Positions 30,674 through 61,226 of a DNA stretch of 64,000 bases are shown piece after piece. This DNA comes from Candidatus Doudnabacteria bacterium (GTDB lineage: Bacteria; Patescibacteriota; Doudnabacteria; UBA920): the NCBI GenBank assembly GCA_963837465.1, contig CAWINB010000004.1:330853-394852 (forward strand), read 5' to 3'. How positions within the stretch are numbered: the stretch's first letter is position 1; each line of letters starts with the position of its first letter. Under the pieces are notes generated by a model that saw nothing but the letters and a program-made list of their open reading frames with translations, did not search any database and was not told the DNA's origin. The translations under genes and the position numbers were made by a program.

Positions 30674-30703
30674 TTGTTAAAAGTCATTTTTATAAGTTTA
30701 ATT

Positions 30704-33200: not shown

Positions 33201-33222
33201 TTAACCATTAACCTTTTTATTT

Positions 33223-33657: not shown

Positions 33658-33725
33658 TTTTTTATAGATTTATTGGTCTTTATATAGGACTTGACAATGT
33701 GGTGTTTACCATATACAATTGAAGT

Positions 33726-34040
33726 ATGGATTTCATATTAAACAATTTTGAGGGTTTTGAGTGGGATGAGGGGAACGAACAAAAGAGCTTTTTGAAACAT
33801 GGCATTACGCCATTGGAAGCGGAAGAAGCATTTTTTAACCCCAATTTTATATCAGCTGATCCTGTCCATAGCCAGAGCGAAAAGCGTTACCGCTTATTGG
33901 GCAGAACTAACAGTAGTAAAGTTTTAATAATAGCTTTTACAATAAGAAGTAACAAAGCGAGAGTTATCTCTTCGCGATTAGCCAATAAAAAAGAAAGGAC
34001 ATTATATGACCAAGCAGTTAAAGCCAATTCCCAAATTTAA
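33726..34040 (+). CDS. brnT: BrnT-family (DUF497) toxin
   Basis: FEWDEGNEQKSFLKHGITPLEAEEAF is the BrnT signature. Confidence 0.8.
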   Translation: MDFILNNFEGFEWDEGNEQKSFLKHGITPLEAEEAFFNPNFISADPVHSQSEKRYRLLGRTNSSKVLIIAFTIRSNKARVISSRLANKKERTLYDQAVKANSQI

Positions 34041-34272
34041 GACTGAAGCCGAAGAAGCCAAGTTTTGGAATAGCCACGACTCTACCCAGTATATTGACTG
34101 GTTAAAAGCCCCGCGTGGCGTTTTTCCTAACCTAAAACCATCTTCTCAATCTGTTTCACTTCGCATTCCAGCCAACATATTAGCTCGCATTAAAGTGCAA
34201 GCCAATCAGTTAGACGTGCCTTATCAATCTTTGATGAAGCAGTATATTGCTAACGGTGTAATGAAGAATTAA
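34006..34272 (+). CDS. brnA: BrnA-family antitoxin
   Basis: Overlaps brnT. EEAKFWNSHDSTQYIDW plus a C-terminal ribbon-helix-helix-like segment. Confidence 0.75.
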   Translation: MTKQLKPIPKFKTEAEEAKFWNSHDSTQYIDWLKAPRGVFPNLKPSSQSVSLRIPANILARIKVQANQLDVPYQSLMKQYIANGVMKN

Positions 34273-34277
34273 ATGCA

Positions 34278-34487
34278 ATGGGCAGTATAAGACATATTGA
34301 CGCAGGTCATCCGGATGAGTGGTATAAGGACAGGTTTATGGTCACATTTACCGAGGAAGGTATAATGGATCTGAGGTACCAAGATTGGGTTGGCGGCAGG
34401 ATGGAAGTGTATGTTGTGGGAGAGCAGTATGCAATAGATGAAATTCGGTTTTTTTACCCCAAACACATTAGAATGGATAAACTTTAG
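34278..34487 (+). CDS. Hypothetical protein
   Basis: 69-aa ORF with no recognisable motif. Confidence 0.25.
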   Translation: MGSIRHIDAGHPDEWYKDRFMVTFTEEGIMDLRYQDWVGGRMEVYVVGEQYAIDEIRFFYPKHIRMDKL

Positions 34488-34587
34488 GGAGCAATATGAT
34501 GGCAAGTGGTTAGATAAAACTGCATTTGAAGACGTAGTGGAAACGGTAAAGAAAAGGTTTTACACCAAACCAGAAAGCAGAATTTAA

Positions 34588-34662
34588 CAATTAAATTGAT
34601 CTTTTAAATTTTTAATACAGTAGTAGTTTGTCAGGCAATTTCCGTTTACAACGGCTCAGAAA
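34588..34662 (+). repeat. Right-end repeat R1, copy a
   Basis: Matches 51785-51858 except for a 1-nt indel. Ends ...gcaatttccgtttacaacggctcagaaa immediately before CACCTCC. Confidence 0.85.
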
Positions 34663-34679
34663 CACCTCCTTTCTAAGGA
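34663..34679 (+). repeat. att core copy 2 (cacctcctttctaagga)
   Basis: 17/17 identical to the 16S 3' tail at 17861-17877. Confidence 0.85.
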
Positions 34680-34942
34680 ATAAATATGCAGCCTTAAACT
34701 TTTCGAAGTTTATGTTGTTGCACATTCCAGTGGTCGTCATCTTCTATTTCGATAGAAGGTGCACATACTCTAACGATTGAACGTAAACGAACGGTTTTGT
34801 AAAAGGTAATTCTACCCTTATTTTCGCAAGATTATAAGGAGTCTCAACGCCTTAAATGTTGGGAGTCACTATTTAGCCGTTAAGGGAACTTAACGAAATT
34901 GCAAATAAAAGCCTCGTCATCAGCAATGATAACGAGGTTTTT
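34663..34942 (+). other. 16S tail + trailer + terminator segment, copy S-B
   Basis: Shares ggtcgtc, acgtaaacg, ggttttgta, ggtaattctaccc, gtcactatttagccgtta and gaaattgcaa with S-A. UUCG hairpins at 34696-34711 and 34741-34758. Terminator at 34912-34942. Confidence 0.75.
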
Positions 34943-35929
34943 ATGTATGAGGTTAATTCGGTAGAAAGAGTCGCAAAAGGTGGAATTGCGGCGACAGTCA
35001 GCCCCGCCGCTCCTATCGGCACAAAGATTAGCACTTTGGTGCCGCAATTCTTGGCTTATGGCCAGTATGACCTGTCCTTTGCCGCAGGCACCATAGAGAA
35101 ATACCGCGATAGCCTAAACGTCTTTATGCGGGACGTTGGGGATTTGCCCGTAGAGGAATTAAACTTTGGGCATTTTACTTTGCTGAAACAAAAAATTATG
35201 GAAAGGGGGTCGGGGGTCTCACGCATAGCGGGCGTGGTCTTTGCGATGAAAAGTATGTTAAAGTTTGCTACCGACGTATTGGAGATGCAGATTTTGGATT
35301 ATAAGAAAATCAGAGCGCCGAAGCGGCGCAGGCGGGACGTAGTTTATTTAACCAATGCCGAAATCCAGCAGTTCGTTGACAGCATAAAGTTTGAAAAATG
35401 CTGGACGGGCAATACCCGTAAAAAGGGCATCAGCGTCCACCGCCTGAGGTTTCGGACTTTGGTTGAAGTCTTGCTTGGCACGGGGATGCGTATAAGCGAA
35501 GCATTGTCGCTTACAAGGGATGTTATAAACTTTGAAAAAGGCGAGGCTAAGATAATCGGCAAAGGAAGCAAGGAGCGCACAGTGTTTTTTAACGAACGGG
35601 CTTTGTATTGGATTAAGTTTTATTTGGAACAGAGAAACGACGACAATCCCGTTATATTTTTAAACCGAAAAGGCAAGCCGCTGGACAGGGGCGATGCCGA
35701 TACTTTGTTTAAGCGTTACGCAGAAAGGTCAGGTATAACTAAAAAATTAACGCCGCACATTTTGCGGCACACGATGGCGACGAATCTGCTTTTTAACGGA
35801 TGCCCGATTGGCCATATTAAGGAAATCCTCGGACACGACCGATTAGAGACAACTTGTCGTTATTATTTGGGCTTAGACAAAGATAAAGCTAAAGAAGCCC
35901 ACGGCCAATTTTTAAATTACGAACAATAA
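34943..35929 (+). CDS. Tyrosine recombinase/integrase, class A (copy 2)
   Basis: GMRISEALSL, HILRHTMATNLLFNGCPI, LGHDRLETTCRYY. Confidence 0.9.
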   Translation: MYEVNSVERVAKGGIAATVSPAAPIGTKISTLVPQFLAYGQYDLSFAAGTIEKYRDSLNVFMRDVGDLPVEELNFGHFTLLKQKIMERGSGVSRIAGVVFAMKSMLKFATDVLEMQILDYKKIRAPKRRRRDVVYLTNAEIQQFVDSIKFEKCWTGNTRKKGISVHRLRFRTLVEVLLGTGMRISEALSLTRDVINFEKGEAKIIGKGSKERTVFFNERALYWIKFYLEQRNDDNPVIFLNRKGKPLDRGDADTLFKRYAERSGITKKLTPHILRHTMATNLLFNGCPIGHIKEILGHDRLETTCRYYLGLDKDKAKEAHGQFLNYEQ

Positions 35930-39632: not shown

Positions 39633-40682
39633 ATGAACAATATGACAACCTTCACTAAACAGTGGACTTCCAATAGGCCTAGAATTTTCGGGGTCTTTGG
39701 GAAAACCCAGCAGGATGACACATTTGAAATTTTAATTCCAAAATTTCTTGACTACGCCCAATTTGATTTGAAACTGGCCAAAGAGACCATCGGAAAATAC
39801 AAAGAATCTTTGGGTTGGGTGACAAGGTATCTGCCCGACGTGGAACGCCCCGCCCAAATGACGCTGGAAGATGTTACCCGAATTAAAAAGCAGGTGGCAA
39901 TGCGTGGCAATAGCGAGGCTCGGACTAACTCCATTATCTTCGCCTTGCGGAAGTTTTTGGACTATTGCGGCAAGCGGATGCAGATTGAAACCATTGACCC
40001 AAAGACCATAGAGCCGCTGAAAATCCCCAAGCGGGAAGTTATCTACCTTAACAAGGACGAGATAAAAAATCTGCGTGATGTATTTGACTTAGCCAACAAG
40101 CGGGAGTTCCGAATGCGGGTGCTGGTGGAATTTCTGCTCGGCACGGGAATGAGAATCTCTGAAGCGCTATCGGTCAATCGTGAGCAGATTAATTATGACA
40201 GCAAGGAAATAAAAATTGTCGGCAAGGGCAACAAGGAGCGCACAGTTTTTGTTTCCGATGATGCCTTAGGCTGGATAAAAAGGTATCTGGATACCCGCAC
40301 GGATGACAATCCTGCTGTCTTTATAACCTTTGGCGAGCAAGAAAGGTTAAGGCGGGGCGACTTGGCAGAATTATTAAGAGGTTATGGAATAAAAGCGGGG
40401 CTACAGAAGAAAGTTACGCCGCATATCTTGAGACACTCATCGGCAACCACGATGATGCGGAAAGGCTGTCCTCTGCCTTACATCCAGCAGTTGCTCGGCC
40501 ACGCCGACATTAAAACGACCGCCAAATATTATCTTGGCGTTGATAAACAATCCGTCAAAGATGCTCACGAAAAATATCTTAAGTTCGACCACCACCGTTT
40601 GGGAATGGCGGCACCTGTGCGTAAAGGTATTGACTTGGATAGCTACCTTGAGTATTTCTCGGCCTATCTTCCGAAAGAGTAG
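39633..40682 (+). CDS. Tyrosine recombinase/integrase, class B (copy 2)
   Basis: GMRISEALSV, HILRHSSATTM, LGHADIKTTAKYY. Has a ~30-aa C-terminal extension. Confidence 0.9.
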   Translation: MNNMTTFTKQWTSNRPRIFGVFGKTQQDDTFEILIPKFLDYAQFDLKLAKETIGKYKESLGWVTRYLPDVERPAQMTLEDVTRIKKQVAMRGNSEARTNSIIFALRKFLDYCGKRMQIETIDPKTIEPLKIPKREVIYLNKDEIKNLRDVFDLANKREFRMRVLVEFLLGTGMRISEALSVNREQINYDSKEIKIVGKGNKERTVFVSDDALGWIKRYLDTRTDDNPAVFITFGEQERLRRGDLAELLRGYGIKAGLQKKVTPHILRHSSATTMMRKGCPLPYIQQLLGHADIKTTAKYYLGVDKQSVKDAHEKYLKFDHHRLGMAAPVRKGIDLDSYLEYFSAYLPKE

Positions 40683-45817: not shown

Positions 45818-45833
45818 TAATAGCATAAAAATG

Positions 45834-46049
45834 CCAATTTAGTTTTCCTACAAAAAGCTATTAAAACTCAATCGGCTAATTTAGGCTCTTAAACAATAGT
45901 GGGTAGCACAGAGGGTAAACTTTGGGAGGGGATAACTGTGTTGCTACAACTTTTTGTAATCGCTAACATCTGTGTAAGACTTTAAAAATTAAATATCTTT
46001 GCTGACCGAAGCGTAGTGCAGGAATTATTTTTTTACACCTCGGATTAAA
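45834..46049 (+). repeat. Right-end repeat R2, copy a
   Basis: About 216 nt, homologous to 47498-47720. Shared blocks are ctattaaaac, aaacaatagtggg, ggtaaactttgg, ggataact, cgctaacatc, tttaaaaattaaatatc and ttacacctcggattaaa. Confidence 0.8.
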
Positions 46050-46056
46050 CACCTCC
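46050..46056 (+). repeat. att core copy 3 (cacctcc followed by atacggctaca)
   Basis: Heptamer preceded by ...cggattaaa and followed by the short left-end type. Confidence 0.6.
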
Positions 46057-46124
46057 ATACGGCTACAACTTCCTCACTTAGCAAAAATCGCCCAAAAGGC
46101 GGTTTTTTTTGTTATAATTTAACT

Positions 46125-47486
46125 ATGCACGAACCAACTGAACCTAATAATCAACCCTGTCCAGGTTGTGGCTATCCAGCTCAAGCTGGCCACGCTCCTA
46201 ATTGCCCTACTGTCAGCAAAGGCGAAAAGGAAAAAAACCTTGAAGGAGTAGAAGCAAGGAAGTATACGGCCGAGGATATACAAAATTTTCAGGGTGAATT
46301 ATCACAATTTGAAAAAATGCGTAAGGCTGATAATGCCAACTACGTCTTTGATTTTACCGAGTATTACCAATTTTTAACCCAGCACAAAAAATCTCAAGAA
46401 CGACCTTTTACACAAAGAGATGTTTCGACACCTGGCTATCAAGATTTGGAAGTTGGCATATTCAAAGGCTGGAAACAAAATTTGTTAGCCAAAAAAGACA
46501 AACTCATCCAGTCACGACCAAAATTAGCACCGATTATCGGAATGCTAGAGAGCGAGCCTACGCCAAAAACCTTAGATGAACTTCGGGATTTGTTTAGAAA
46601 ACATCCCGACTTAAATGAATTTGGCGCAGTCCAATACCAAGACGGCGTGGGAGAACAGGGAGAAAAGAAAAGCGGATTTTTGCATATCAATATGTCCCGC
46701 TATAACGGCTATGAATACGAACTACCCAAGACGGATACCAGAGTTTACTTAAACCCGCCACCCGAAGCTATACCGCAAATATCTATGGAGCTTTGTAATA
46801 TAGCACAGGCTAAAAGATTTCCGTTATATTTTAAAACCATAGATTATTCTTTTCAAAAACCCAATCCCGACAACACCAACAGGCTGGATAAGTTTATTGT
46901 TTATACAGACAAGGCGCACGTGACCGCTCTCTCCCAAGAATTAAAAACTTTGCAAAGCAAACATCCCGAATGGTTTAACGGCAGAGAATTGCCAACTATG
47001 GTTGCCAAAATGGGCGAGGGCGTGGGAGTAGCGGAAGACCCTAACGAACAACAAATGCAAAAGTTTGGCGAGCGTGGCAAGTCATTTAACGGTATGAGGG
47101 CTTTATTTTTAAAGGATGTTTGGACGGGTGTGACAAAAGACATTATCTTAGCGCAACGGACTTGGCGGCCAAGAGGCGGTAGGACTATGGAAGAAATTTT
47201 TAATGATAATCTAAAAGCTGGGCTAACTCGTAGGCAGTTACAGCCTAATGTGATAGCCGATGTTATCGGCAAGGCTTGGGCGGCACAATTAGATAGTTCA
47301 AGAATGGGAAGTCTTCCCGACAGCAGAATAGCAGATGAAGTTGATAATGCCGTGGCAAGAACTATGGCTGATGTAATTCCTAACATTACCCCTGATTCCT
47401 TGCAACCAGCCGTGCAAAACCAAATCAACAAAAAAGCAAAGGATTATTTTATTAACCCTAATAATTTAGCTTTTAATCAAATTTAA
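46125..47486 (+). CDS. Hypothetical protein with an N-terminal Cys-rich knuckle
   Basis: 453 aa. The N-terminus contains CPGCGYPAQAGHAPNCP. The -10 box lies about 9 nt before the ATG, so the 5' UTR is very short or absent. Confidence 0.45.
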   Translation: MHEPTEPNNQPCPGCGYPAQAGHAPNCPTVSKGEKEKNLEGVEARKYTAEDIQNFQGELSQFEKMRKADNANYVFDFTEYYQFLTQHKKSQERPFTQRDVSTPGYQDLEVGIFKGWKQNLLAKKDKLIQSRPKLAPIIGMLESEPTPKTLDELRDLFRKHPDLNEFGAVQYQDGVGEQGEKKSGFLHINMSRYNGYEYELPKTDTRVYLNPPPEAIPQISMELCNIAQAKRFPLYFKTIDYSFQKPNPDNTNRLDKFIVYTDKAHVTALSQELKTLQSKHPEWFNGRELPTMVAKMGEGVGVAEDPNEQQMQKFGERGKSFNGMRALFLKDVWTGVTKDIILAQRTWRPRGGRTMEEIFNDNLKAGLTRRQLQPNVIADVIGKAWAAQLDSSRMGSLPDSRIADEVDNAVARTMADVIPNITPDSLQPAVQNQINKKAKDYFINPNNLAFNQI

Positions 47487-47497
47487 GGGATTATGGC

Positions 47498-47720
47498 CAG
47501 TTTAGTTTTTGTATAAGAATCTATTAAAACTAAATCGGCTTTAAACAATAGTGGGCGGTAGTGGGGGTAAACTTTGGAGGGGATAACTTTGTTGCTAAAA
47601 AATTTTACTGCCGCTAACATCCGAGTAGCAATTTAAAAATTAAATATCATCGCTGTAAGCGAGCTTGAAAATAAATAGTGGGAGCGAGTGGGGGTGAACA
47701 ACTTTACACCTCGGATTAAA
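47498..47720 (+). repeat. Right-end repeat R2, copy b
   Basis: See 45834-46049. Contains ataaatagtggg (leader-like) and ends ...ttacacctcggattaaa. Confidence 0.8.
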
Positions 47721-47737
47721 CACCTCCTTTCTAAGGA
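47721..47737 (+). repeat. att core copy 4 (cacctcctttctaagga)
   Basis: 17/17 identical to the 16S 3' tail. Confidence 0.85.
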
Positions 47738-47996
47738 ACAATATGCACCCTTTTCCCTTTTCGAAGGGGAATGTTGGTTCACATTCCGTAGGTCGTCGTT
47801 AATTTTTTCGAAAATTAGCGCACTTCTTGAAACTTCAAAGAACGACGTAAACTGGTGGTTTTGTAACGGTAATTCTACCGTATTTAGCAATAAATACGGC
47901 CTAAGCGCCATTAATGCTTGGGATCACTATTTAGCCGTTAAAGGTTAAACACGAAATTGCAAAGAAAGTCTCGGCCGTTATGGTGCGAGGCTTTTT
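47721..47996 (+). other. 16S tail + trailer + terminator segment, copy S-C
   Basis: UUCG hairpins at 47754-47769 and 47800-47817. ggttttgta, ggtaattctacc and atcactatttagccgttaa are conserved. Terminator at 47967-47996. Confidence 0.75.
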
Positions 47997-48968
47997 ATGT
48001 TCTATGCAAAAACGTCACTTGAATCAACCGCTAAAGTAGGAACTTTAGCGCCAATCTCCAATGATTTGACAATGAGCCAGCTCATTCCAATGTTTTTAAA
48101 GTACGGTCAGTTTGAATTAATGTTCTCACAGAACACGCTCACCAAATACGACGAGTGTTTAAAATGGGTTGTTAGGGACATCGGCGATTTGAAGGTCACG
48201 GAGTTAAGCCTGTTCCATTTTACCGAGTTAAAACAGATAATAACTAACCGTGGTTGCGGCACCAGCCGCGTTGCTTCCATGGTGTTCTCCATGAAGAGTT
48301 TCCTTAAGTATTGCAAGGACTATCTAGAGCTGCCGGTCATGGATTACAAAAAGATAAGGTCGCCGCGGTTTAAGCGCCGTGAAGTGATTTATTTAACTAA
48401 CGAAGAGATTGAGCAGTTTGTCAGCGCCATTAAAATAGAGAATGGCCCTCGTGCCATAAATTCGGTACGTATGGATGGCCTAAGGTTTCGGGTACTGGTG
48501 GAAGTCTTGCTCGGCACCGGCATGCGCATTTCTGAAGCCTTGTCGCTTAACAGGGATATGGTTGATTTTGAAAAGGCCGAAGCCAAGATTATAGGCAAAG
48601 GCAGCAAAGAACGTACAGTATTTTTCAGCGAGCGGTCGCTTGATTGGGTCAAGCGTTATCTATCCCTGCGTACAGACAATGAACCCGCTTTGTTTCTCAC
48701 CCAGCAGAATACGCGCCTGTCCAAGATAGATGTGCCCGGCTTCTTTAAACGGTACAGCAAGAAGGCCGGTATAACGAAGAAACTGACACCGCACGTGCTC
48801 AGGCATACCTGTGCTACGAACCTCTTGTTTAACGGCTGTCCCATAAACAATGTTCAAGTAATTTTAGGGCATGACCGGCTGGAAACCACCTGTCGCTATT
48901 ATCTCGGTGTTGACAAAACAAAAGCCAAAGAGGCACATGGCAACTTTTTAAATTATCAATTGTCGTAA
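47997..48968 (+). CDS. Tyrosine recombinase/integrase, class A (copy 3)
   Basis: GMRISEALSL, HVLRHTCATNLLFNGCPI, LGHDRLETTCRYY. Confidence 0.9.
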   Translation: MFYAKTSLESTAKVGTLAPISNDLTMSQLIPMFLKYGQFELMFSQNTLTKYDECLKWVVRDIGDLKVTELSLFHFTELKQIITNRGCGTSRVASMVFSMKSFLKYCKDYLELPVMDYKKIRSPRFKRREVIYLTNEEIEQFVSAIKIENGPRAINSVRMDGLRFRVLVEVLLGTGMRISEALSLNRDMVDFEKAEAKIIGKGSKERTVFFSERSLDWVKRYLSLRTDNEPALFLTQQNTRLSKIDVPGFFKRYSKKAGITKKLTPHVLRHTCATNLLFNGCPINNVQVILGHDRLETTCRYYLGVDKTKAKEAHGNFLNYQLS

Positions 48969-51784: not shown

Positions 51785-51858
51785 CAATTAATTGATCTTT
51801 TAAATTTTTAATACAGTAGTAGTTTGTCAGGCAATTTCCGTTTACAACGGCTCAGAAA
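51785..51858 (+). repeat. Right-end repeat R1, copy b
   Basis: Nearly identical to 34588-34662. Confidence 0.85.
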
Positions 51859-51865
51859 CACCTCC
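51859..51865 (+). repeat. att core copy 5 (cacctcc followed by ctccggctaca)
   Basis: Heptamer preceded by ...ggctcagaaa. Followed by a short left end with the terminator cccgctc gtaatt gagaggg ttttt. Confidence 0.6.
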
Positions 51866-52033
51866 CTCCGGCTACAGAAAATGCAAATACAGAAACTGTC
51901 CAAGAATGAAATCGCCCGCTCGTAATTGAGAGGGTTTTTGATTATAAGAGACCGATGGGTTGTGGTTCATGTTACCTCTGGACAGTTTTCGGCCGTAGGT
52001 TATAATTAAGGCAAGATATTAACTAATTATTAT

Positions 52034-52891
52034 ATGGGGACTTATGCAGGAGGCAGGCCAGGTGGAGAAGTTGACCCGGGGCTTATTGCCGGTCAAATTT
52101 TGGACAAATCAAAAAAAGGCGAAAGCAAACAGAAACAGCCTTTAGCCGAGGCTCTTGCTGATAAGGCATTATCGCGAGACCAGATGTTTCAAAAGCTGTA
52201 TAGTATGGTGCCAGCAATGGAACGCTATGCCGAATCACGGCTCGGCAGCCATAAAGCCAATGCGGCCGACATTGTGAGCAAGGCCATGGCCTACGTGATT
52301 CAGAGTGCAAGCGTTACCTTTTGGGTGCTTATTTCCGGAAATTTTTTTACGAAAAAACTTAATCAAAATCGCAATGTTCAAGAAATACGCGTGTTTTGAA
52401 ATTTTCATTTCAACACACACATATCCCTTGAAGCAACTTAACTAGTTAAACCACGATTTTTTGTCTTAATTGTGTTTTAAAAATACAATCTCACGCACCC
52501 AAAAGGTAACGCTCTCATTCAGAGTATAGATAACGGGGTTTTTCGGTTTAATGCGCCGTTGAGCAGTTGGTTTAAAATCTCGGTAAATGGGCGCATCCAG
52601 GATCGTTTTCGGTCGGCAACTAACGACCCCTTGGATCGAGCGGAAAGCATGGATGCGCCTATGGAGTCGGCAAAAGGGGATGAAAGCTATCGCCAGTATG
52701 CTGATTCTACTCCAAATATCGAGGAAAAGTTGGTGGCACAATCCAACGAACAGGCGCTTAAAAGAGGTATCGCCGTGCTCCTAAAACAGAACCAAAAACT
52801 TGGCGACGTTATGAGTTTGGTTGCCGACGGTTTAACCAACCAAGAAATCGCTGAGCGGCTAGGCGTTAATAGCAACCAAGTCAAAGTATAA
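52034..52891 (+). pseudogene. Sigma-70-family/LuxR-HTH-like regulator gene, split by a MITE and truncated by IS3
   Basis: Removing 52307-52525 fuses 52034..52306 to 52526..52891 in frame. The region-4-like ...LVADGLTNQEIAERLGVNSNQVKV stops abruptly at the IS3 end. Confidence 0.6.
52307..52516. mobile_element. MITE (210 bp) with 22-bp terminal inverted repeats and a 9-bp target duplication
   Basis: gcaagcgttaccttttgggtgc (52307-52328) vs gcacccaaaaggtaacgctctc (52495-52516), 20/22 complementary. Flanked by attcagagt at 52298-52306 and 52517-52525. The AT-rich interior has no ORF. Confidence 0.8.
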
Positions 52892-52965
52892 TGGACTGGG
52901 AATCCTGTACAGGTATATTAGATAGAAAATCGGGGGTATAATACTGTCAGGAAGGAATAACAAAA

Positions 52966-53256
52966 ATGAAAAAGGTGTTTACCCCGCAGCAGAAAGCTGC
53001 GGTAGCCCTGGAGGCCATTAAGGGCGAATTAACAATTGCACAGATTGCCAGTCAATACGAAGTTCATCCCACTCAGATCGCAGTCTGGAAGAAACAGGCC
53101 ATAGAGATTTTAAAGGCCGGCTTTACCGATAAGCGTAAAAAGGAAAATTTTGACCAGCAGAGGATAACTGATGACCTCTACAAGACCATCGGCCAGCGCG
53201 ACATGGAGCTGGCCTGGCTTAAAAAAAAGTTGCAGCCATTTGGACTTTCAGACTAA
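52966..53256 (+). CDS. IS3-family transposase OrfA (HTH)
   Basis: MKKVFTPQQKAAVALEAIKGELTIAQIASQYEVHPTQIAVWKKQ... plus a leucine-zipper-like end. Confidence 0.8.
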   Translation: MKKVFTPQQKAAVALEAIKGELTIAQIASQYEVHPTQIAVWKKQAIEILKAGFTDKRKKENFDQQRITDDLYKTIGQRDMELAWLKKKLQPFGLSD

Positions 53257-53701
53257 ACAGAATTTAATTATTCCCGGTCTCCAAGGCCTTTCCATTGCCA
53301 GGCAAGCAAAGCTCCTTAATATTTCCCGCTCCGGTTTTTACTACAAGCCCGCGTCCCTAAGCCCTGAAGAAATTCGCATCATGGGCTGTATAGATAAAAT
53401 CTTTACCGATTGCCCATTCTACGGCTCCCGCAGGATCAAGCACGAGCTGGAAAGTCAGCCGTACAAAATTTTCATCTGTCGAGAGCATGTGCAACATCTT
53501 ATGCGCCAGATGGGACTGGAAGCTATATATCCAAAAAAAATTACTACCATACCTAACCTGCAGCACCTTAAATACCCCTACTTGTTAAAAAATTTGCCTA
53601 TTGTGAGGCCTAACCAGGTCTGGGGCACGGATATTACCTACATTAAGCTACTCGGCGGCTTCTGTTATTTAGTCGCCTTACTGGACTGGTTTTCCCGATA
53701 C
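53228..53701 (+). pseudogene. IS3-family transposase OrfB, truncated after the first catalytic Asp region
   Basis: Track ORF 53171..54139 is a chimera. Transposase similarity ends near 53701, and residues from GEYRDTKNQ onward are unrelated. Confidence 0.7.
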
Positions 53702-54227
53702 GGGGAATATAGGGATACAAAAAATCAACCGTACATAGAACTGCAAAAATCCGGGTGGAAAGGTGAATTAGGTCAAGAGCTAAAAAATAGATTTAGCTCT
53801 GCCTCTGAACAATCGCATGCAAACTTGTTTAAAATGATGTTTTGGAGAGGCTCAAGAACAGAAAAAGAAAATGGTCAATTTAAGATAGTAGATCGTTTTG
53901 AATTTTTTGACAATCCAAACCCGCCAGATTGGATGATAACTAACCTCCACTGGCTGATAGACACCTCTTTTACCATACTGATTTTGTTGTCAGAAACTTT
54001 TCAGGAACCTCAAAAAAACAGTGATTTTAAAAAAGCAGTACAGACTAAATATTCAAAGTATAAAAAATACATACTTGAGAACCAGGACAAAATATTGATT
54101 AGACATAAGCTCACATATATTCCAGAAGAAGAAGTTTAATTTTTTGGTCAAACTCCACTGTCGATATTTTATAATTGATTTGTTATGACCGTTGGTTGTT
54201 TTTTAAAATTTTTGTTATAGTTTTATC

Positions 54228-54483
54228 GGAGTAGTGAGAGTTGGTGTTTTTAGCCCTTTTGGCTAAAACACTGCCGTGTAATAAGTCCGCCATCCGCCTT
54301 GTGCGGTGGATTTGCCCGAGTAGGGTGAAAGGTGCGGTTAAAAGCGGCAGTGGCTTACGGGTCCACCAAGAGTTCAGCCGAGCAATAACTGGAGCAAAAC
54401 CGAGGGCTGGAAAGCGAAATAGGATTTTCCTCTCGCTTGCTACTCCCGCAAAGAACTTCCAATTTTGGGAGTTTTTTGTTTTT
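54228..54483 (+). ncRNA. Candidate ~255-nt structured RNA ending in an intrinsic terminator
   Basis: Extended -10 tgttatagt at 54213-54221. Stems gtgttttagcc/ggctaaaacac, ctgccg...cggcag and cagcc...ggctg. Terminator aacttcc aatttt gggagtt plus a T-run at 54454-54483. The overlapping 83-aa ORF looks non-genic. Confidence 0.3.
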
Positions 54484-54543
54484 AAACAATAGGGAATATG
54501 GAGGTATTGTTATAAACACCTCATTTTGTGGTATAGTATAGGT

Positions 54544-55152
54544 ATGAAAATGTTGCTTGAATTTGACTACAAAAAAGCCACCCAAGCGATAAACTACCTC
54601 ACAAAAAAAGAGGGCGGACAGATTGATAAACTGAAACTCATTAAGCTTGTCTACCTCGCAGATAGGTATCACTTGCGGCGATATGGTCGGCCGATGGTCA
54701 ACGATGCCTATTTTGCCATGCCTCTCGGCCCAGTTGGTTCATCCGTAAAAGACATTGCGGAGTTTTCTGGTTTTCTTGATGGGTCAGAACTAACCTATGC
54801 TGTAACATATTTGGGACGCGGGGGCGTTGAAAATACAGTGGTGTCCATAGCAGATGTTGATACGGGAGTTTTTTCAAAGAGCGAAATCGAAGCTCTTGAT
54901 TTTGCCTATAATGAGTTTGGCGGACAATCAGCCCCGTCTTTAGTAAATATTACACATCGCTATCCGGAATGGGATAAATTTAAGAGTGCGCTCCAATCAA
55001 AAGAAACAACCCGTGAGCCGATGTCTTATACTGATTTTTTTAAAAACCCCATCAATGGGACAGAAGATAAATTTGTCCTCTCAAGTGACATACTTGCGGC
55101 TTCCAAAGAACTTTTTGATGAAGACTACAAGATTGCCGAATACTGGAGATAA
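54544..55152 (+). CDS. Panacea-domain (DUF4065, SocA/PanA-like) protein
   Basis: IDKLKLIKLVYLADRYHLRRYGRPMVNDAYFAMPLGPVGSSV...THRYPEW fits the DUF4065 pattern. Confidence 0.7.
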   Translation: MKMLLEFDYKKATQAINYLTKKEGGQIDKLKLIKLVYLADRYHLRRYGRPMVNDAYFAMPLGPVGSSVKDIAEFSGFLDGSELTYAVTYLGRGGVENTVVSIADVDTGVFSKSEIEALDFAYNEFGGQSAPSLVNITHRYPEWDKFKSALQSKETTREPMSYTDFFKNPINGTEDKFVLSSDILAASKELFDEDYKIAEYWR

Positions 55153-55174
55153 ACGGGATAACCGATATACGGAT

Positions 55175-55627
55175 ATGAAAATCCCAGCGCACATTCGCAT
55201 TTTAGCGACAATACAACCTGGCTCGATTTATTATTTTGAAGAAGAGCAACTCTCTTCACCAGAGCCGCACTACTTCATAGTTTTGAATAAAGACCCGCTC
55301 ACAGAGGAATTTCTTATTCTTGTTTGCGCTTCTTCCCAAGTTGAGAAGCGTCGGCAGATAGCAATAAAGCTGGGCTTTCCAAAAGAAACTTTGGTATTTG
55401 TATCACCATCCGAATGCTCGCTTTTCACAAAGGATACCGTTATAGATTGCAACAGGGTTTTTGAAAAAACTTCGCAGTCTCTCATTGAAAAACTTGAGCA
55501 AGAGAATCTCAAAGTATGCGCAGAAGTAATTGCCACAGAGATTATCGCCAAACTGATACAGGGAGTGTTGGCAAGCTCGCAAGTATCCGAAAAGATACAG
55601 CAATTACTCTTAAATCATACCAACTAA
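55175..55627 (+). CDS. Hypothetical protein, candidate toxin partner of the Panacea protein
   Basis: 150 aa from the ATG at 55175, 22 nt after the Panacea gene. No motif recognised. Confidence 0.4.
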   Translation: MKIPAHIRILATIQPGSIYYFEEEQLSSPEPHYFIVLNKDPLTEEFLILVCASSQVEKRRQIAIKLGFPKETLVFVSPSECSLFTKDTVIDCNRVFEKTSQSLIEKLEQENLKVCAEVIATEIIAKLIQGVLASSQVSEKIQQLLLNHTN

Positions 55628-56072
55628 GCCCCGGGCTTAAAAATCCTATGCATAGTCAGCCAGCGTAAACTTTAGCAAACCTTGTTCGAACCTCTCTGCA
55701 GGTGGCGAGCCACATGGGACGAACAACCTCGAAAGAGGGGGTTCGTCCTTTGTTTATCGATGGATTCTTTTGTTCGAACCTTGCAGATGCCTTTGGTTCT
55801 TGCTTGATGCCATTTTTTATTATTTCCAGCTCTTCAGGCAAGCAAACATTGAGGATTTTGTTGATTAGGGTTGTGTTCGAACCTAATTCCGAAAGTATCT
55901 CTCGTTTCTTTTTAATATCGCCGTGCTTCAACAAATATTTGGCTTGGAACACAAAATCACCGTACGGCAGTGGCGACACCAAATTGTAGTAGAACCTAAA
56001 TTAACAAAATAAATCTCTCTTGCCTGAAGAGAGATTATTGGTGTTAGTTTTGGTTTTGGTAGATTTTTTGGT

Positions 56073-56348
56073 TTAGCCATTGGCTTGGACAATTTTTTGC
56101 AGATCGAGAGGTTCGTCTTTTTTTGCGTTTTTCATTGGCGCGGTATCGTATACATATTTAAGCAACGAATCCAAGGTAAACGAACCAAACTGTTTTATTA
56201 TGGTATCAACGATGTCTTTTTTTACCGGTGCTATATTCAACTCTACTGGCTTGCCGGTATATTGGAAAAGAAAATAGACTTCATCGGGATGGGATACTTT
56301 ATTTTGTTGTTTGACCTCAATAAATTTATGGGCTTCAAGTGGGCACAG
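56073..56348 (-). pseudogene. C-terminal fragment of a second Panacea-domain protein
   Basis: The startless minus-strand reading ...APVKKDIVDTIIKQFGSFTLDSLLKYVYDTAPMKNAKKDEPLDL parallels EIEALDFAYNEFGGQSAPSLVNITHRYPEW of the intact copy. Confidence 0.35.
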
Positions 56349-56587
56349 TCATAGTTGAAAGTCAGGGATGAAAAGCAATTCCGAAGCACCAAGTTTTTGC
56401 CAGCCGGGGCCGACATAAAAACTTCACAGTTCATTTATGGTAATACCCTGGCTATTATTTCCCTCAATAAGCGCAAGCCCGTAGCCATAATCATGGAAGA
56501 CCCGGATAGTGGATGTTACCAATCTGCCGCGAGGAACCTTTATTGAATCGTGTTATAATAAAGGAAATTAACCCATTAGAAATAAAT

Positions 56588-57043
56588 ATGAAAATCCATA
56601 CCCAGACTGATAAAGAGAGGCAGCAGCAGTTAAAGCTGTTTTATGATTTCATAAGATCGCACAAGCTGGCGGTTATGGCTACGGTAACCGGAAGCGCTTT
56701 GCCTGAAGCTGCGGTGGTAGGCATTGGGGTGGAGGAAAACTTGCAATTGCTTTGCAGCACTTTCAGCACCTCCAGGAAATATGAAAATATTAAACTGAAT
56801 CCGAAAGTCGCGTTGGTCATTGGCTGGGAACACGGTAAAACGGTGCAGTACGAGGGGACGGCCGAGGAGTTAAGTATTGAGCAGGCCGAAGAAAATCCGC
56901 TGCGGGACGGATTGGAAAAAATACCGGCCATTGCCAAGTATGTACAAAGGGAATACGGCGTGTTCTATAAAATTAAGCCAGAGTGGGTTAGAATGAGCGA
57001 TTTATCGGTAGACCCATGGGAACGGTTTGAAATTAAGTTTTAA
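56588..57043 (+). CDS. Pyridoxamine 5'-phosphate oxidase-family (FMN-binding split barrel) protein
   Basis: LAVMATVTGSALPEAAVVG...KVALVIGWEHGKTVQYEGTAEEL pattern. The ATG at 56588 is preferred. Confidence 0.6.
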   Translation: MKIHTQTDKERQQQLKLFYDFIRSHKLAVMATVTGSALPEAAVVGIGVEENLQLLCSTFSTSRKYENIKLNPKVALVIGWEHGKTVQYEGTAEELSIEQAEENPLRDGLEKIPAIAKYVQREYGVFYKIKPEWVRMSDLSVDPWERFEIKF

Positions 57044-57080
57044 CTAAAAATAATTAAGAACCTGTTTTAAAACAAAACAT

Positions 57081-57638
57081 ATGAACGAAACACAAAATGT
57101 TGTGCAAATCCCCGAGCCGGCCTTGTCGCGGTTTTTATTCGCCGACAGCCGCTTTGCCTGGTTCTGGCTTATCGTCAGGTTGTATGTCGGCTGGCAGTGG
57201 CTTTCGGCAGCTTGGGAAAAATTCAACAGCCCCATGTGGGTGGGTAGTCAGGCTGGTGTTGCCATTAAAGGCTTTCTTATGGGTGCCGTGCAAAAAGCTG
57301 CCGGAGCTCATCCTGACGTTTCCGGATGGTATGCTGCTTTTTTGCAGAACTTTGCCATTCCCCACGCCGCGGCTTTTTCTTATGTGGTAACTTATGGCGA
57401 ATTGTTGGTAGGAATTGCCTTGATTTTGGGCGTGCTTACGGGTATAGCGGCTTTCTTTGGCACGTTTATGAACTTGAATTATTTGTTTGCCGGAACCGTC
57501 AGCATCAATCCTTTATTGGCCGTATTAGGATTGTTCTTGATTTTGGCTTGGCGCACAGCAGGCTGGTACGGGCTGGACCGCTGGTTGTTGCCAACCTTGG
57601 GCACGCCTTGGCAAGCAGGCAAAATATTTAAAGGTTAA
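57081..57638 (+). CDS. DoxX-family membrane protein
   Basis: Four TM helices. RLYVGWQWLSAAWEKF and YGELLVGIALILGVLTGIAAFFG are typical of DoxX/DoxD. Confidence 0.65.
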   Translation: MNETQNVVQIPEPALSRFLFADSRFAWFWLIVRLYVGWQWLSAAWEKFNSPMWVGSQAGVAIKGFLMGAVQKAAGAHPDVSGWYAAFLQNFAIPHAAAFSYVVTYGELLVGIALILGVLTGIAAFFGTFMNLNYLFAGTVSINPLLAVLGLFLILAWRTAGWYGLDRWLLPTLGTPWQAGKIFKG

Positions 57639-57678
57639 TAGGTTCTAGAAAAAATTAATCTTTACTATAATATGCAAT

Positions 57679-58470
57679 ATGCAACCATCCTTACAACAGC
57701 TTATAAACCTTAAAGACAAAACTGCCGTTGTTACCGGCGGCGCTATGGGCATTGGCTTTGGTATCGCGTATCGGCTTGCAGAAGCCGGAGCCAATGTAGT
57801 TGTCGCGGATATGAATGAGAAAGTTGGCAAGGCTTCAGCAAAGCAATTGGCTGATAAAGGCTGGAAAGCCGGCTTTGTCAAGGTTGATGTCTCTGATGAT
57901 TTGCAGGTAGGGGCGGCAGTGGAATTTGCCCGCAAAACCTACGGCGGCATTGATATTTTAGTCAATGACGCCGGCATTTATCCCATAGCTCCGATCATGC
58001 AAATGGCTGTGAAGGATTTTGAGAAAGTCCTTGCCGTAAATTTAAAGAGTGTTTTTCTTTTTACCAAAGCCGTGGCGCAAGTTATGATAGAGGACGGCAA
58101 GGGCGGTAAAATTATAAACATCACTTCCGTGGACGCTCTCCATCCTTCTTCGGTGGGTTTGGCTGTTTATGACGCTTCAAAGCATGGGCTGTGGGGTTTT
58201 ACCAAAAATACCGCCTTAGAACTGGCGCCGCATAACATTCAGGTTAATGCCATAGCCCCGGGCGGTATCGCTACACCCGGCACAGGAGCGGGCCAAGCGC
58301 AAACTCCGCAAATAGAGGCAGTCACCAAAGAATTTTTGAAAAAAATTCCCATGAAGCGCATGGGTGATCCCGACGACATCGGCAAAGTCGCCCTGTTCCT
58401 TGCTTCCGACCTTTCCAGCTACATGACCGGGTCACAGGTAGTGGTTGACGGAGGAGTTTTGCTGGCCTGA
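57679..58470 (+). CDS. Short-chain dehydrogenase/reductase (FabG-like)
   Basis: TGGAMGIGFG (cofactor site), NDAG, YDASKHG (catalytic Y-x3-K). Confidence 0.85.
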   Translation: MQPSLQQLINLKDKTAVVTGGAMGIGFGIAYRLAEAGANVVVADMNEKVGKASAKQLADKGWKAGFVKVDVSDDLQVGAAVEFARKTYGGIDILVNDAGIYPIAPIMQMAVKDFEKVLAVNLKSVFLFTKAVAQVMIEDGKGGKIINITSVDALHPSSVGLAVYDASKHGLWGFTKNTALELAPHNIQVNAIAPGGIATPGTGAGQAQTPQIEAVTKEFLKKIPMKRMGDPDDIGKVALFLASDLSSYMTGSQVVVDGGVLLA

Positions 58471-58489
58471 TAAATTATTATATAATCGC

Positions 58490-59072
58490 ATGACCGGCTA
58501 CAAAGATGTTTTGGGTATTGTTACTTTATTAATCGCAGTAGTCAGCTACAGTTTTTATTTTAAAGATGTCTTTTTGGGCCATACCAGGCCGCAGCCTTTT
58601 TCTTGGTTTGTTTGGTCAGTCCTTTCTGCCGTAGCCTTTGCCGGCCAAATTGCCTCAACTGCCGGGCCGGGCGCTTGGATTACGGGATTTACTGCCAGTG
58701 GTGTGCCTTATCATTTCCGTAATAGCTTCCTTTAAAGGAGCAACGCAATTTAAAATTTTAGACTGGATTTCGCTGTTTGCGGCTTTAGCGGCGCTCCTGC
58801 TTTGGTATTGTACAAGGCAGCCGGTTTTGGCAGAGATGTTGGTAAGCGCGGCTTATGCGCTAGGTTTTATCCCAACCATTGTAAAAAGCTACAACAAGCC
58901 CCAAGAAGAAACGGCTACCACCTTTGGGCTAAATTCCATTAAGTTTGGCATTTCCATTTTTTCCTTAACCGTTTTTTCCGTTGCCACCTGGCTGTATCCG
59001 CTGACACTTTTTGTCTTAAATGGTTTATTTGCCATTATGCTGTTAGCGCGCCGTCAGCAAACGGCTGGTTGA
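58490..59072 (+). pseudogene. Multi-pass membrane protein with an apparent +1 frameshift near 58700
   Basis: ORFs 58445..58735 and 58638..59072 are both hydrophobic. Together they read as one protein if one base is skipped around actgccagtggtgtgcc. Confidence 0.45.
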
Positions 59073-59168
59073 ATTAAAAGCAGGTTCTAGCTTAAAATCT
59101 GCCCGGCTATACGGAATATTGTGCCAAAGCGCATTGGTCCCTCATGTCGGCGATTTTCTAAATTAGTC

Positions 59169-59612
59169 ATGAATCCCATAATTTTCCTTATCCTCAATCT
59201 GGCTTTAGCCTTTTATAACGTCGGTACCATCTGGGCCATGGAAGTGGATATTTTCCGCTCCTGGAAACTTGCGGGCGCTGATTTTCCCAAAGTCCAGGAA
59301 GTTCACTGGCGAAAACTTCCTTATTGGGTTTTTGCTCCGGTAGTTTCGGCCCTTTTAGGCGGCATCGTGCTGGTTTGGCATCACCCGGCCAACTCGCCAG
59401 CTTGGGGATACTTCGGAGCTTTGCTGTGCCAAGCCGCCTCTTTAATTTTAACCGCCATCTTTTGGGGGCAGTGGCAGGCAAAGCTGTCCAAAGATCCGCT
59501 CGGTCCTAACTGTTTGTACTTGCAGAAAATTTTAGCCACCCACTGGATCAGAACCTTGCTTGTCAATGCCTATGCTTTTATCTTGCTGGCATGGATGGTA
59601 AAAATCATATAA
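59169..59612 (+). CDS. Hypothetical four-helix membrane protein
   Basis: 147 aa from the ATG at 59169. Confidence 0.45.
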   Translation: MNPIIFLILNLALAFYNVGTIWAMEVDIFRSWKLAGADFPKVQEVHWRKLPYWVFAPVVSALLGGIVLVWHHPANSPAWGYFGALLCQAASLILTAIFWGQWQAKLSKDPLGPNCLYLQKILATHWIRTLLVNAYAFILLAWMVKII

Positions 59613-59668
59613 CCCGCGAAGGCTATTTAATGAAACAATAAAATCTAAATTACTAATCCAGAAAAGAA

Positions 59669-59788
59669 ATTGCAGGCTTTAGGGACAAAGCGATCCACGA
59701 CTATGCCGGCCTTCATGCCGGGATAGTTTGGGAAACCATCCAAACGGATTTAAAACCACTACAAACAGCCTTGTTAAAAGTATCATAA
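59669..59788 (+). pseudogene. HepT/DUF86 C-terminal remnant
   Basis: IAGFRDKAIHDYAGLHAGIVWETIQTDLKPL retains R-x4-H-x-Y but has no N-terminal half and no start. Confidence 0.55.
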
Positions 59789-59935
59789 GAGCTAAAAGTT
59801 GATATTTTTGACAGGCTGTTTTGTTTTCTCAAAAATGCTATAATGTAATTACTAATTGTTATCTCAACTGGAGATAAAAGCCTCTTTTCAAACTAAATAG
59901 TGACTCCTGCAACACAGTTCCTACGTCGGGGTGAA

Positions 59936-59947
59936 CACCTCCTTTCT
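59936..59947 (+). repeat. att core copy 6 (cacctcctttct), distal boundary of the array
   Basis: 12/12 identical to the 16S tail. Preceded by gtcggggtgaa (compare 16S gtcgtggat). Followed by unique sequence and the LCP gene. Confidence 0.7.
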
Positions 59948-60017
59948 TTCGCACATTTTTATATTTGTTCAGACCCTAAGTTTATTGGGAAACTAAGGGT
60001 TATTCAAAAGGTCTATT

Positions 60018-61226
60018 ATGAAAGTCTATGAAGTCTCCGATTCCCAGCAGCCAAATGCCGCTCCAAAAATAAATTACACCAGCGAGCCTACTCCAAAAGC
60101 AACCGGCAAACGGCAGGTTTCCCTTGTCGGCCCCAAAATAATTATCGGGACTATTGTTTTTGTGTTTTTATTGCTGGTCGGCAGCGCCTATGCTTTTCTT
60201 TCGCATTCCCTGTCGCGTACCAGCAAGAGTTTTAAAAATGGCCAGGCCATCAGTTTGGCTTCTTTCGCGGCGGCGGCAAATACCAAGCTTATGGGGGAAG
60301 ACCAGGATCGCACCAATGTTATGATTTACGGGCTAACCGCGGACGGGCTTCGCACCGACACAATAATTTTGGCCTCGTACTACTGGAATGAACGCAAGTT
60401 GGTCATGCTTAACATCCCCAGGGATTTGTACGCCAACTACGACAACCATGATACAAAGATTGTTTCCCTGTACGCCATTGCCAAAGACGCGGATCCGGGG
60501 GACGAGAGCTATCCCCCCCAGTACGTCAGCGACTTTATTTCCAAGGAATACGGCATCCCCGTAGATTACTGGGTCGTTGCCAATATGAATGCCTTTAAAC
60601 AGCTGGTAGATTCCGTTGGCGGCGTAACCATAAATGTGCCAGACTCTTTTACCGATTATGAGTACCCAACTGACGATTACAGCGGCTACATCCGTCCCGC
60701 TCCCCATTTTAGCGCCGGCGTTCAGACCATGGACGGCGCCACGGCGCTTATTTACGCCCGCAGCCGCCATGCCGCCGGGCCGGAAGGCACGGACTTTGCC
60801 AGGAGCAGGCGCCAGCAGGTTATTATAGAGGCGATTTTAAGCAAACTTAAGCAGCAGGGAGCGTTAACCGATGCGACCAAGCTTGATTCCTATCTGCAAA
60901 TTTTTGGCAGCAATGTTTTTACCGATATGACGCCGGCCGAACTGATTAAATCCGGCCAGCTGGCCGGCCAGCTGAATTTATCGCAGGACGTTATTACTGC
61001 CAACTGGAGCAATGATATTGGTTTTTTGTGTGATTCCACGGACGCGGGAGGTTCTTACGTGCTTCGTTACGGCGTTTTGGGCAACTGCACAGGAGCGGCC
61101 GGCGACAACGACAGCTCCCCATACAGGCAACAGGCCGTTAATTATGTACAGAACCTTTTACAGAGCGCGGAACCTCCGGTTTCAACCAGCACGGCCACCA
61201 GCGCCACAACTACCTCGCCTGACTGA
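60018..61226 (+). CDS. LytR-CpsA-Psr (LCP) family protein
   Basis: N-terminal TM anchor. RTNVMIYGLTADGLRTDTIILASYY...LNIPRDLY and ALIYARSRH motifs. Confidence 0.85.
   Translation: MKVYEVSDSQQPNAAPKINYTSEPTPKATGKRQVSLVGPKIIIGTIVFVFLLLVGSAYAFLSHSLSRTSKSFKNGQAISLASFAAAANTKLMGEDQDRTNVMIYGLTADGLRTDTIILASYYWNERKLVMLNIPRDLYANYDNHDTKIVSLYAIAKDADPGDESYPPQYVSDFISKEYGIPVDYWVVANMNAFKQLVDSVGGVTINVPDSFTDYEYPTDDYSGYIRPAPHFSAGVQTMDGATALIYARSRHAAGPEGTDFARSRRQQVIIEAILSKLKQQGALTDATKLDSYLQIFGSNVFTDMTPAELIKSGQLAGQLNLSQDVITANWSNDIGFLCDSTDAGGSYVLRYGVLGNCTGAAGDNDSSPYRQQAVNYVQNLLQSAEPPVSTSTATSATTTSPD

Follow-up and report, generated by a model that had tools for sequence, protein, structure and literature searches.

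The window analysed here is a 64-kb stretch (64,000 nucleotides, positions 330,853 to 394,852 of contig CAWINB010000004.1, assembly GCA_963837465.1) of a Candidatus Doudnabacteria genome, in which a single 16S rRNA gene is followed by a tandem array of integrase-bearing elements that reaches to a distal site just before a gene for a LytR-CpsA-Psr (LCP) protein (Table 1); no tRNA or 23S rRNA gene was found in the window. The last 12 nucleotides of the 16S gene, the core CACCTCCTTTCT, occur four times, every copy on the + strand (c1 at 17861, c2 at 34663, c3 at 47721 and c4 at 59936), against about 0.28 copies expected, and four copies were reached in none of 100 shuffles. Cores c1 to c3 each precede a homologous trailer of about 265 nt (around 75% identity between copies), a terminator hairpin and the ATG of an integrase of about 325 aa (PF00589, E around 1e-40), the integrases beginning 265–276 nt past the cores. 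The window is thereby predicted to hold at least three integrase-headed units, E1 (17873-34662), E2 (from 34675) and E3 (from 47733), and integrase-less units start at the partial cores at 46050 and 51859. The cargo of the array includes a type III restriction-modification system, a reverse transcriptase, a Rep-like protein (the rolling-circle Rep-like protein encoded by E1 being a weak match), ParB, a C5 methylase, AbiEii, SocA and transposases. The fourth core, c4, has only the core in common with the surroundings of the other three.

Table 1. Coordinates of the features of the array, its 16S target and its distal end (positions are those of the window).
Feature	Position	Strand	Basis or remark
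True 16S leader strand ttaacagTTAAATAGTGAT	15975-15994	+	Inverted repeat with element-borne trailers, ~19–21 bp; leader profile E=1.9e-7
16S rRNA gene	16287-17872 (Rfam match 16287-17870)	+	SSU_rRNA_bacteria, 1274.6 bits, model positions 1-1533
Core copy c1, last 12 nt of 16S	17861-17872	+	attL junction of array; core search
E1 trailer (c1R)	17873-18137	+	Covarying hairpins, box GTCACTATTTAGCCGTTAAA, GAAATTGCAA, terminator hairpin; alignments with compensatory changes, fold
Element E1	17873-34662		Integrase-headed unit
Integrase 1, tyrosine recombinase of E1	18138-19121	+	PF00589, 9.6e-40
P arm of E1 (c2L)	34548-34662	+	Complementary blocks to E1 integrase-proximal region 18088-18125
Core c2 and E2 trailer (c2R)	34663-34942	+	Core search, trailer alignment
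GGAGTCACTATTTAG in c2R	34862-34876	+	15-nt partner of distal box
Integrase 2	34943-35929	+	PF00589, 1.2e-39
Partial core CACCTCC	46050-46056	+	Follows P arm ~80% identical to 47496-47727; junction with small integrase-less unit
453-aa open reading frame (ORF) of small integrase-less unit	46125-47486		
Core c3 and E3 trailer (c3R)	47721-47996	+	Core search, trailer alignment
Integrase 3 (int3)	47997-48968	+	PF00589, 2.3e-40; >2000 homologues
Second E1-type P arm copy	51790-51865	+	100% identical to 34594-34669, ends CACCTCC
Integrase-less cargo unit	51866-59935		Adjoins second E1-type P arm copy
Outward-facing promoter-like region of distal P arm	59808-59844	+	Consensus matches
Hairpin tatctc/aactg/gagata	59860-59876 (7-bp stem 59859-59877)	+	In minimum free energy (MFE) and centroid folds
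ATAAAAGCCTCTTTTC	59874-59889	+	Resembles 5' arm of integrase terminators
Leader-like box ctaaatagtgac	59893-59904; extended CTAAATAGTGACTCC 59893-59907	+	Complement of trailers
Core c4 CACCTCCTTTCT, putative attR crossover region	59936-59947	+	No trailer-like sequence to its right
Hairpin ACCCTAAGTTT...AAACTAAGGGT	59973-60000	+	Fold; between core c4 and LCP gene
LCP gene	60018-61226	+	PF03816, 7.4e-34; co-oriented with P-arm promoter

The distal site opens with a promoter-like region facing out of the array. A perfect TTGACA (59808-59813) lies 17 nt upstream of a weaker -10 hexamer, AAAAAT, which overlaps the extended -10 TGcTATAAT (59836-59844) that a first-pass annotation of this DNA had proposed, and the TATAAT ends 92 nt before c4. 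An extended -10 by itself is no rarity in a sequence of 64 kb, and the significance of this one derives from its position, which is conserved among related elements. The hairpin, the box ctaaatagtgac and the terminal 16S tail of that annotation are likewise present in the order proposed. The segment ATAAAAGCCTCTTTTC pairs at 15 of 16 positions with GAAGTGAGGCTTTTAT of c1R and forms 9 bp with GAGGCTTTT of c3R or GAGGTTTTT of c2R (one G-U pair), just upstream of the integrase ATG; it could pair with this GAGGCTTTT stretch, a putative integrase Shine-Dalgarno (SD) sequence and U-tract represented by GAGGTTTTT in c2R, which is no more than a lead. Positions 59928-59950 hold a weak terminator-like hairpin that has a T-rich tail. 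The GC content is about 0.42 in the array and climbs to 0.48–0.50 beyond position 60000, which is weak support for a boundary there. Exact-protein look-ups returned no record for the LCP protein or int3, and an exact match of an SDR gene was found on a 6.7-kb contig ending 700 bp before the distal junction.

The box had been described as the perfect complement of a trailer block, and this holds over a longer stretch than claimed. In a search of the window the trailer block GTCACTATTTAG was found intact at 18065 and 34865, and the copy at 47923 has one mismatch; the sole inverted copy of the block is that at 59893. Extended to CTAAATAGTGACTCC, the distal box matches its partner in c2R as a perfect complement over 15 nt and is complementary to c1R over 12 nt and to c3R over 11 nt; among 400 shuffles of the 150 nt upstream of c4, the longest trailer match was 13 nt, and 15 nt was reached in none. 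Folding the distal arm together with the trailer copies, as had been suggested, gave MFE structures in which the box pairs with the trailer box and closes the trailer domain when the arm is joined in silico to c3R or c1R. The description of the box as a mimic of the true leader stood only in part. The two are identical at 10 of 12 bases (leader positions 15983-15994) and pair with the same trailer block; however, a profile of true 16S leaders from nine other genomes, which finds the real leader (15966-16003) as its best match in the window (E=2e-7) and also matches the three trailers on the opposite strand, ranks the distal box sixth, with a window-wide E of 4 and a match limited to the stem-strand part (model positions 17-30). 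Since the box extends into the trailer bases GGAG, which the real leader leaves unpaired, it looks like a trailer segment in inverted form and not like a copied leader. The proposed h45-like sequence could not be recovered, as a local alignment of the 16S 3' region with the 45 nt preceding the core scored at chance level (p=0.46; 5 of 20 end-anchored identities). No similarity to 16S was seen at the distal site past the 12–13 nt core and no Rfam SSU match was obtained there, the best match at that site with Rfam 15 under a permissive threshold being snoZ103 on the opposite strand, at 21.7 bits against a gathering threshold of 44; the c2 junction gave no Rfam match. What is left of the proposed miniature rRNA operon is a promoter, a trailer-complementary leader-like box and a 16S tail, without the h45 similarity. 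Leader-like motifs noted at 45895, 47553 and 47672 are present.

The context of these features was examined in about 140 loci around integrase relatives, drawn from genome and metagenome collections and belonging to Doudnabacteria, other Patescibacteria and metagenome-assembled genomes (MAGs) labelled Deltaproteobacteria, Acidobacteria or Rokubacteria. Among the integrase matches with CACCTCCTT at most about 500 nt upstream, 47 lie directly past a true 16S end (with GATCACCTCC and GTCGTAACAAGG upstream), the same integrase family thus occupying the same target in independent genomes, and a further 32 follow a non-16S arm that typically ends in AACACCTCC. The gap between core and integrase is 195–333 nt in the genome loci examined, and many short-read contigs start exactly at the 16S end. 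Locus L008 holds a 4.9-kb element between identical repeats of about 187 bp, which start exactly at CACCTCC and span the trailer, the second copy leading to a terminator and then to host genes. The trailers contain hairpins with compensatory changes and an invariant block, (G/A)TCACTATTTAG(C/T)(C/T)GTTAAA, which pairs over about 19–21 bp with the host leader CTTTAACAGCTGAATAGTGAT; homologous leaders and this pairing are kept in relatives. By these comparative sequence features, the trailers are real conserved RNAs. Searches of IMG/VR with the integrase profile and with a distal-arm 21-mer returned nothing relevant and no viral or circular contigs, so that the elements are not among the viruses catalogued there.

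The opposite ends of the elements, their P arms, share further features with the distal site. A perfect TATAAT occurs in 10 of 47 P arms, against 4% of random windows and 2 of 47 on the opposite strand, and a -10 match of at least five of six positions in 39 of 47, against 37% and 28 of 47, respectively. These -10 positions cluster between -107 and -90 from the core, where the distal site has its own at -92, and P arms end in AA before CACC, as the distal site does, whereas the 16S gene has AT. The suggestion that a P arm lies at the end of the array is therefore well supported, the site being built like the right ends of related elements.

P arms also appear to pair with the integrase side of their own element. 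In an RNAalifold analysis of 12 junctions of one clade, the P-arm block CTTTCCATAAACAA forms a helix with the loop and 3' arm of the pre-integrase terminator, about 350 nt away across the core; in this 12-pair helix 88.8% of cells are paired, against 42–45% when the partner is slid, seven of the 12 pairs show compensatory changes, and the observed values were reached in none of 500 shuffles. The P arm of E1 carries three blocks (CAGTAGTAG, GTCAGGC and GGCAATTTCCGTTT) complementary to the integrase-proximal region of E1 (18088-18125), with CAGTAGTAG/CTACTACTG and GTCAGGC/GCCTGAC as block partners, and includes a 13-nt perfect complement reached in one of 400 shuffles. The cognate duplex has an energy of -38.8 kcal/mol, whereas duplexes with the other two integrase regions have -16 and -24, and this specific complementarity of the E1 P arm to its own integrase-proximal region places the crossover inside the core. 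Across 13 elements with both ends available, the summed cognate duplex energy was -361 against -260 expected (permutation p=5e-5), and the cognate partner ranked first in eight. In MFE folds, the terminator is intact in attL_E1, with 16S upstream, and lost in the reconstructed attP_E1. The frequent G-U pairs fit only the strand transcribed from the P-arm promoter, which favours RNA. Whole-sequence RNAduplex comparisons of P arms with trailers gave uninformative long structures. The sequence just before each integrase is itself compact: a conserved GAAATTGCAA, a possible -35, lies within 18088-18140, 34895-34945 and 47950-48000, followed by a hairpin whose loop contains a -10-like hexamer and whose 3' arm contains GAGG (in c1R immediately before the integrase ATG), with the ATG within the U-tract, so terminator, promoter and ribosome-binding site (RBS) appear to be nested.

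We consider it likely that positions 59808-59947 form an attR-type junction, in which the P arm belonging to the final unit of a tandem element array is followed by the 12-bp crossover core and then by non-element DNA. A XerD-like tyrosine recombinase would integrate the elements at the very 3' end of the 16S rRNA gene, the integrase side of each element providing a replacement 16S trailer, with the processing-stem strand that would pair with the host leader, and then a terminator. Because the element supplies this replacement trailer, the 16S gene would stay functional, as both the sequence and the comparison with relatives indicate. The P arm would bear a promoter pointing outward across the core, and the 5' part of its transcript would complement the integrase side, either at the trailer box, as at the distal site, or at the terminator/RBS hairpin before the integrase. 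Both partners would lie on one transcript only when a P arm is joined to an integrase side, in an excised circle or at a tandem junction; their pairing could then remodel the terminator, and integrase expression would report the recombination state. With 16S upstream instead, the terminator would form and rRNA read-through would be stopped. The folds and the cognate pairing suggest that integrase control depends on the recombination state, and we infer an attP-spanning RNA whose 5' part comes from the P arm and which would control the integrase terminator/RBS only when the ends are joined. The distal copy is an orphan P arm, the orphaned half of an attP, with no trailer or integrase downstream and unmatched to int3, and most likely its promoter now does no more than drive transcription across the core towards the LCP gene. 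More tentatively, and with somewhat less than even confidence, the elements may constitute an undescribed and widespread family for which the anti-Shine-Dalgarno (anti-SD) tail is the attachment site and whose attP resembles a pre-rRNA devoid of 16S (promoter, leader, 12-nt tail, trailer and terminator), with a pairing switch across the core that would turn the integrase on in the excised or tandem state and off behind the rRNA operon, the distal site being its orphaned half. It is plausible that the distal unit was the first element to integrate, as had been proposed, although insertion at an internal junction is also conceivable and the array is a mosaic.

Several observations weigh against this interpretation. 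The promoter and terminator calls are consensus matches only. The DNA to the right of c4 is not trailer-like, unlike the terminal junctions in L008, L013, L042, L099, L102 and L106, where the native trailer is kept, so a deletion or an unrecognised further unit must be assumed. The LCP homologues of three relatives (73–75% identity) have other neighbours, with no 16S and no core upstream, and no empty site or circular junction was found in these LCP contexts or in IMG/VR. The distal P arm is not cognate to int3, ranking seventh of 13, and it has no homologue in loci L001-L054 or, by exact 21-mer, in IMG/VR. A complement of the trailer box is not general among P arms of the Candidate Phyla Radiation (CPR) type (Fisher p=0.27), and the best ungapped helix between P arm and whole trailer is also non-significant overall, locus L042 alone being individually significant in each comparison; a leader-stem mimic as a universal feature of P arms was consequently dropped. 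The pairing might also, less probably, reflect strand-specific folding of single-stranded DNA.

The complementarity of the distal box could have other purposes. It would be unlikely, in our judgement, that the P-arm promoter and leader-like box serve chiefly to re-transcribe and process what the insertion severed from the rRNA promoter, namely the displaced native trailer and downstream genes, the site acting as a pre-rRNA without 16S and any effect on the integrase being secondary. At terminal junctions elsewhere the P arm does precede a native trailer able to pair with it (for example TTTTGCGG/CCGCAAAA in L099, L102 and L106), and the distal promoter is co-oriented with the LCP gene; the TTAACAA motif of some P arms resembles the boxA-like CTTTAACA of true leaders, a resemblance kept as a lead only, and CTCTTTTCAAA resembles boxA by eye only. 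However, the 16S trailer of the hosts sampled is closed by a terminator, after which come unrelated protein genes and neither 23S nor tRNA genes, which leaves little to rescue. A P-arm profile hidden Markov model gave no matches to true leaders, so that homology between P arms and leaders was not demonstrated, and covariation and cognate specificity point to the integrase terminator rather than to host sequence. A function at the DNA level is, in our estimate, quite improbable: the complementarity would act in single-stranded or cruciform DNA as a folded attP for a Xer-like recombinase, as in the CTX phage or integron attC sites, or would consist of inverted protein-binding sites. The naming of the integrases as XerC/XerD-like after their homologues, the weak rolling-circle Rep-like protein of E1 and the position of the complementarity on both sides of the crossover core would suit such a role, but many G-U (G-T in DNA) positions are tolerated on the promoter-sense strand only, the partners are separated by 250–350 nt that contain conserved RNA hairpins, there is a conserved promoter upstream and, at the target, a terminator/RBS, and the paired segments hold the integrase SD and U-tract rather than core-like sites.

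The first-pass annotation had also offered a transcribed RNA of about 100 nt displaying a free anti-SD, and a trans-acting small RNA of this kind, titrating mRNAs or ribosome-maturation factors, now seems very unlikely. A promoter-like site, the weak hairpin with its T-rich tail and CACCUCCUUUCU, an exact 16S tail, are all there; against this, the putative RNA starting near 59851 folds no more stably than shuffled sequences (z=+0.61 and +0.70), and its anti-SD is half-paired with GGGGU and hence only partly free. Moreover, the core is required for recombination anyway, which would explain its conservation, and an independent small RNA is not favoured by the lack of a distal-arm homologue or of an Rfam match in the searches above. 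Mere coincidence, with an ordinary LCP promoter region that happens to contain a 12-mer of the 16S tail and a trailer-complementary 15-mer, is scarcely credible. The LCP gene requires a promoter, and 64 kb can be expected to contain single extended -10 boxes by chance, but core and box both exceed shuffles, the orientation, the spacing and the AA before CACC are the same as at other junctions, and the intergenic region of 400 bp upstream of the LCP gene is missing in its relatives, where 30–63 nt are found. An attR-type junction bearing an orphan P arm accordingly remains the preferred explanation of the distal site.

Within the array, a 76-nt stretch running from the E1 P arm through CACCTCC (34594-34669) recurs at 51790-51865 with 100% identity within otherwise diverged DNA, and this second junction (P arm, CACCTCC and ctccGGCTACAG...) is kept at 89% in another Doudnabacteria genome (L038:16794-16956); together, the duplication and the match point to a composite or mosaic unit. 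Two P-arm copies of about 80% identity (45833-46056 and 47496-47727) flank a 1.7-kb unit (46057-47720) whose sole product is the 453-aa protein, a weak match to the HopA1 domain, and which is like an integrase-less cassette bounded by CACCTCC. Both E1 (27917-28885) and E2 (39633-40682) encode a second tyrosine recombinase that adjoins neither core nor trailer. A LOOT RNA (RF03000) lies about 55 nt past integrase 1 (19177-19305, +) and occupies the same post-integrase position in a Parcubacteria locus (L031:11383-11513). Another copy, at 689-802 (+), is found close to the start of the window in an unrelated setting. The ORF next to it (97-507) does not resemble an integrase, and a literature search on LOOT RNA found no functional information. 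Upstream of the 16S gene, a perfect TTGACA-17-TATAAT promoter (15603-15631) lies about 650 nt before its 5' end, and a hairpin with a T-run precedes the boxA-like leader block, an arrangement kept in relatives.

Other genomes show further arrangements of the same parts. An Arenicellales chromosome (L027) carries three near-identical P arms ending in AATCACCTCCTT (at 3564, 7227 and 9749) upstream of a family integrase, the first two directly followed by small ORFs and lacking trailers, an arrangement like an integron cassette array, here in a non-CPR genome that has no 16S gene within 10 kb. Loci L017, L020, L022 and L043, from Deltaproteobacteria and Syntrophorhabdaceae MAGs or a chromosome, contain intact modules of P arm, core, trailer and integrase with no 16S detected by Rfam within 10 kb upstream, so that an attP-like configuration exists in non-CPR host chromosomes. 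At L010:8299-8340, just upstream of the 16S 5' end, a native leader contains CACCTCCTTTCTAC, which pairs with GTAGAAAGAGAGG in a hairpin, so that an anti-SD-like sequence is present in the 5' leader. In one Moranbacteria genome (L045, L103 and L104; L106:2323-4479) the 16S gene retains its native trailer and terminator, with a family integrase about 1.2 kb further downstream and a P arm-core-trailer junction 6 kb beyond, an unusual placement.

Integration at tRNA and tmRNA genes is textbook knowledge, and our literature search found no prior description of integration at the 16S end, of a 16S-tail-targeting family that supplies a working replacement trailer, or of a comparable mechanism; the combination of 16S-tail targeting, replacement trailers and cognate pairing between P arm and integrase terminator appears to be undescribed. 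Such a family would account for how often the contigs of uncultured Patescibacteria break at the 16S gene or carry integrases just after it, and it would make this position a hotspot where defence and cargo islands of at least 40 kb accumulate beside the gene that a very small genome transcribes most strongly. The covarying pairing that joins an element's far end to the terminator-RBS region of its own integrase is a candidate RNA mechanism for sensing the recombination state, beyond the fusion of a Pcirc-type promoter. In addition, repeated 16S tails and trailers can mislead rRNA annotation, internal transcribed spacer (ITS) analysis and binning.

Islands mobilised by tyrosine recombinases target the 3' ends of tRNA and tmRNA genes and form tandem accretion arrays with integrase-less units that can be mobilised in cis, as well as tycheposon-like arrays. 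The array described here resembles them in having the integrase adjoin the att site, in carrying the target's 3' end so that the gene is restored, in the direct repeats that flank its units, in successive insertion leading to tandem arrays with degenerate or integrase-less units, and in a cargo rich in defence and toxin-antitoxin genes. It differs in its target, the last 12 nt of the 16S rRNA (the anti-SD tail), and in that the restored part is mainly a non-coding trailer of about 260 nt, with a processing-stem strand and a terminator. With integrons it shares, at the level of architecture, short integrase-less units that each end in a similar site (46050 and 51859; L027:3564 and L027:7227) and a tyrosine recombinase at one array end; unlike integron cassettes, its units are 1.7 kb (46057-47720) to about 17 kb long, those of L027 measuring a few kb, three of the units in the window have their own integrase, and the sites are not attC-like hairpins but target the 16S end.

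In bacterial pre-16S rRNA, leader and trailer form a processing stem that is cut by RNase III and is associated with a boxA region. The distal site recalls this arrangement in the 10 of 12 bases that its box shares with the true leader, the common trailer block with which both pair, the promoter upstream and the 16S tail in between; it departs from it in having no 16S body, no h45 similarity and no pairing on the boxA side (CCGTTAA), and in a box that pairs with the GGAG trailer bases and is not conserved among P arms.

The closest regulatory parallel concerns the integrative and conjugative element ICEclc, for which an outward promoter, Pcirc, has been described at the integrase-distal end in addition to Pint (Sentchilo et al. 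2003, as summarised in the review PMC5812530). According to that review, recombination of the ends puts Pcirc upstream of the integrase, whose expression rises in the circular form (PMC5812530). The elements of this array likewise show an outward promoter-like region that is distal to the integrase and predicted to be co-oriented with it. Unlike in ICEclc, the proposed coupling would add a covarying RNA pairing of the P-arm leader with the terminator/RBS hairpin or the trailer, and in the integrated state the integrase stands behind the cell's strongest operon, which would make the terminator essential. The array system may hence represent a riboregulatory elaboration of the Pcirc principle of ICEclc.

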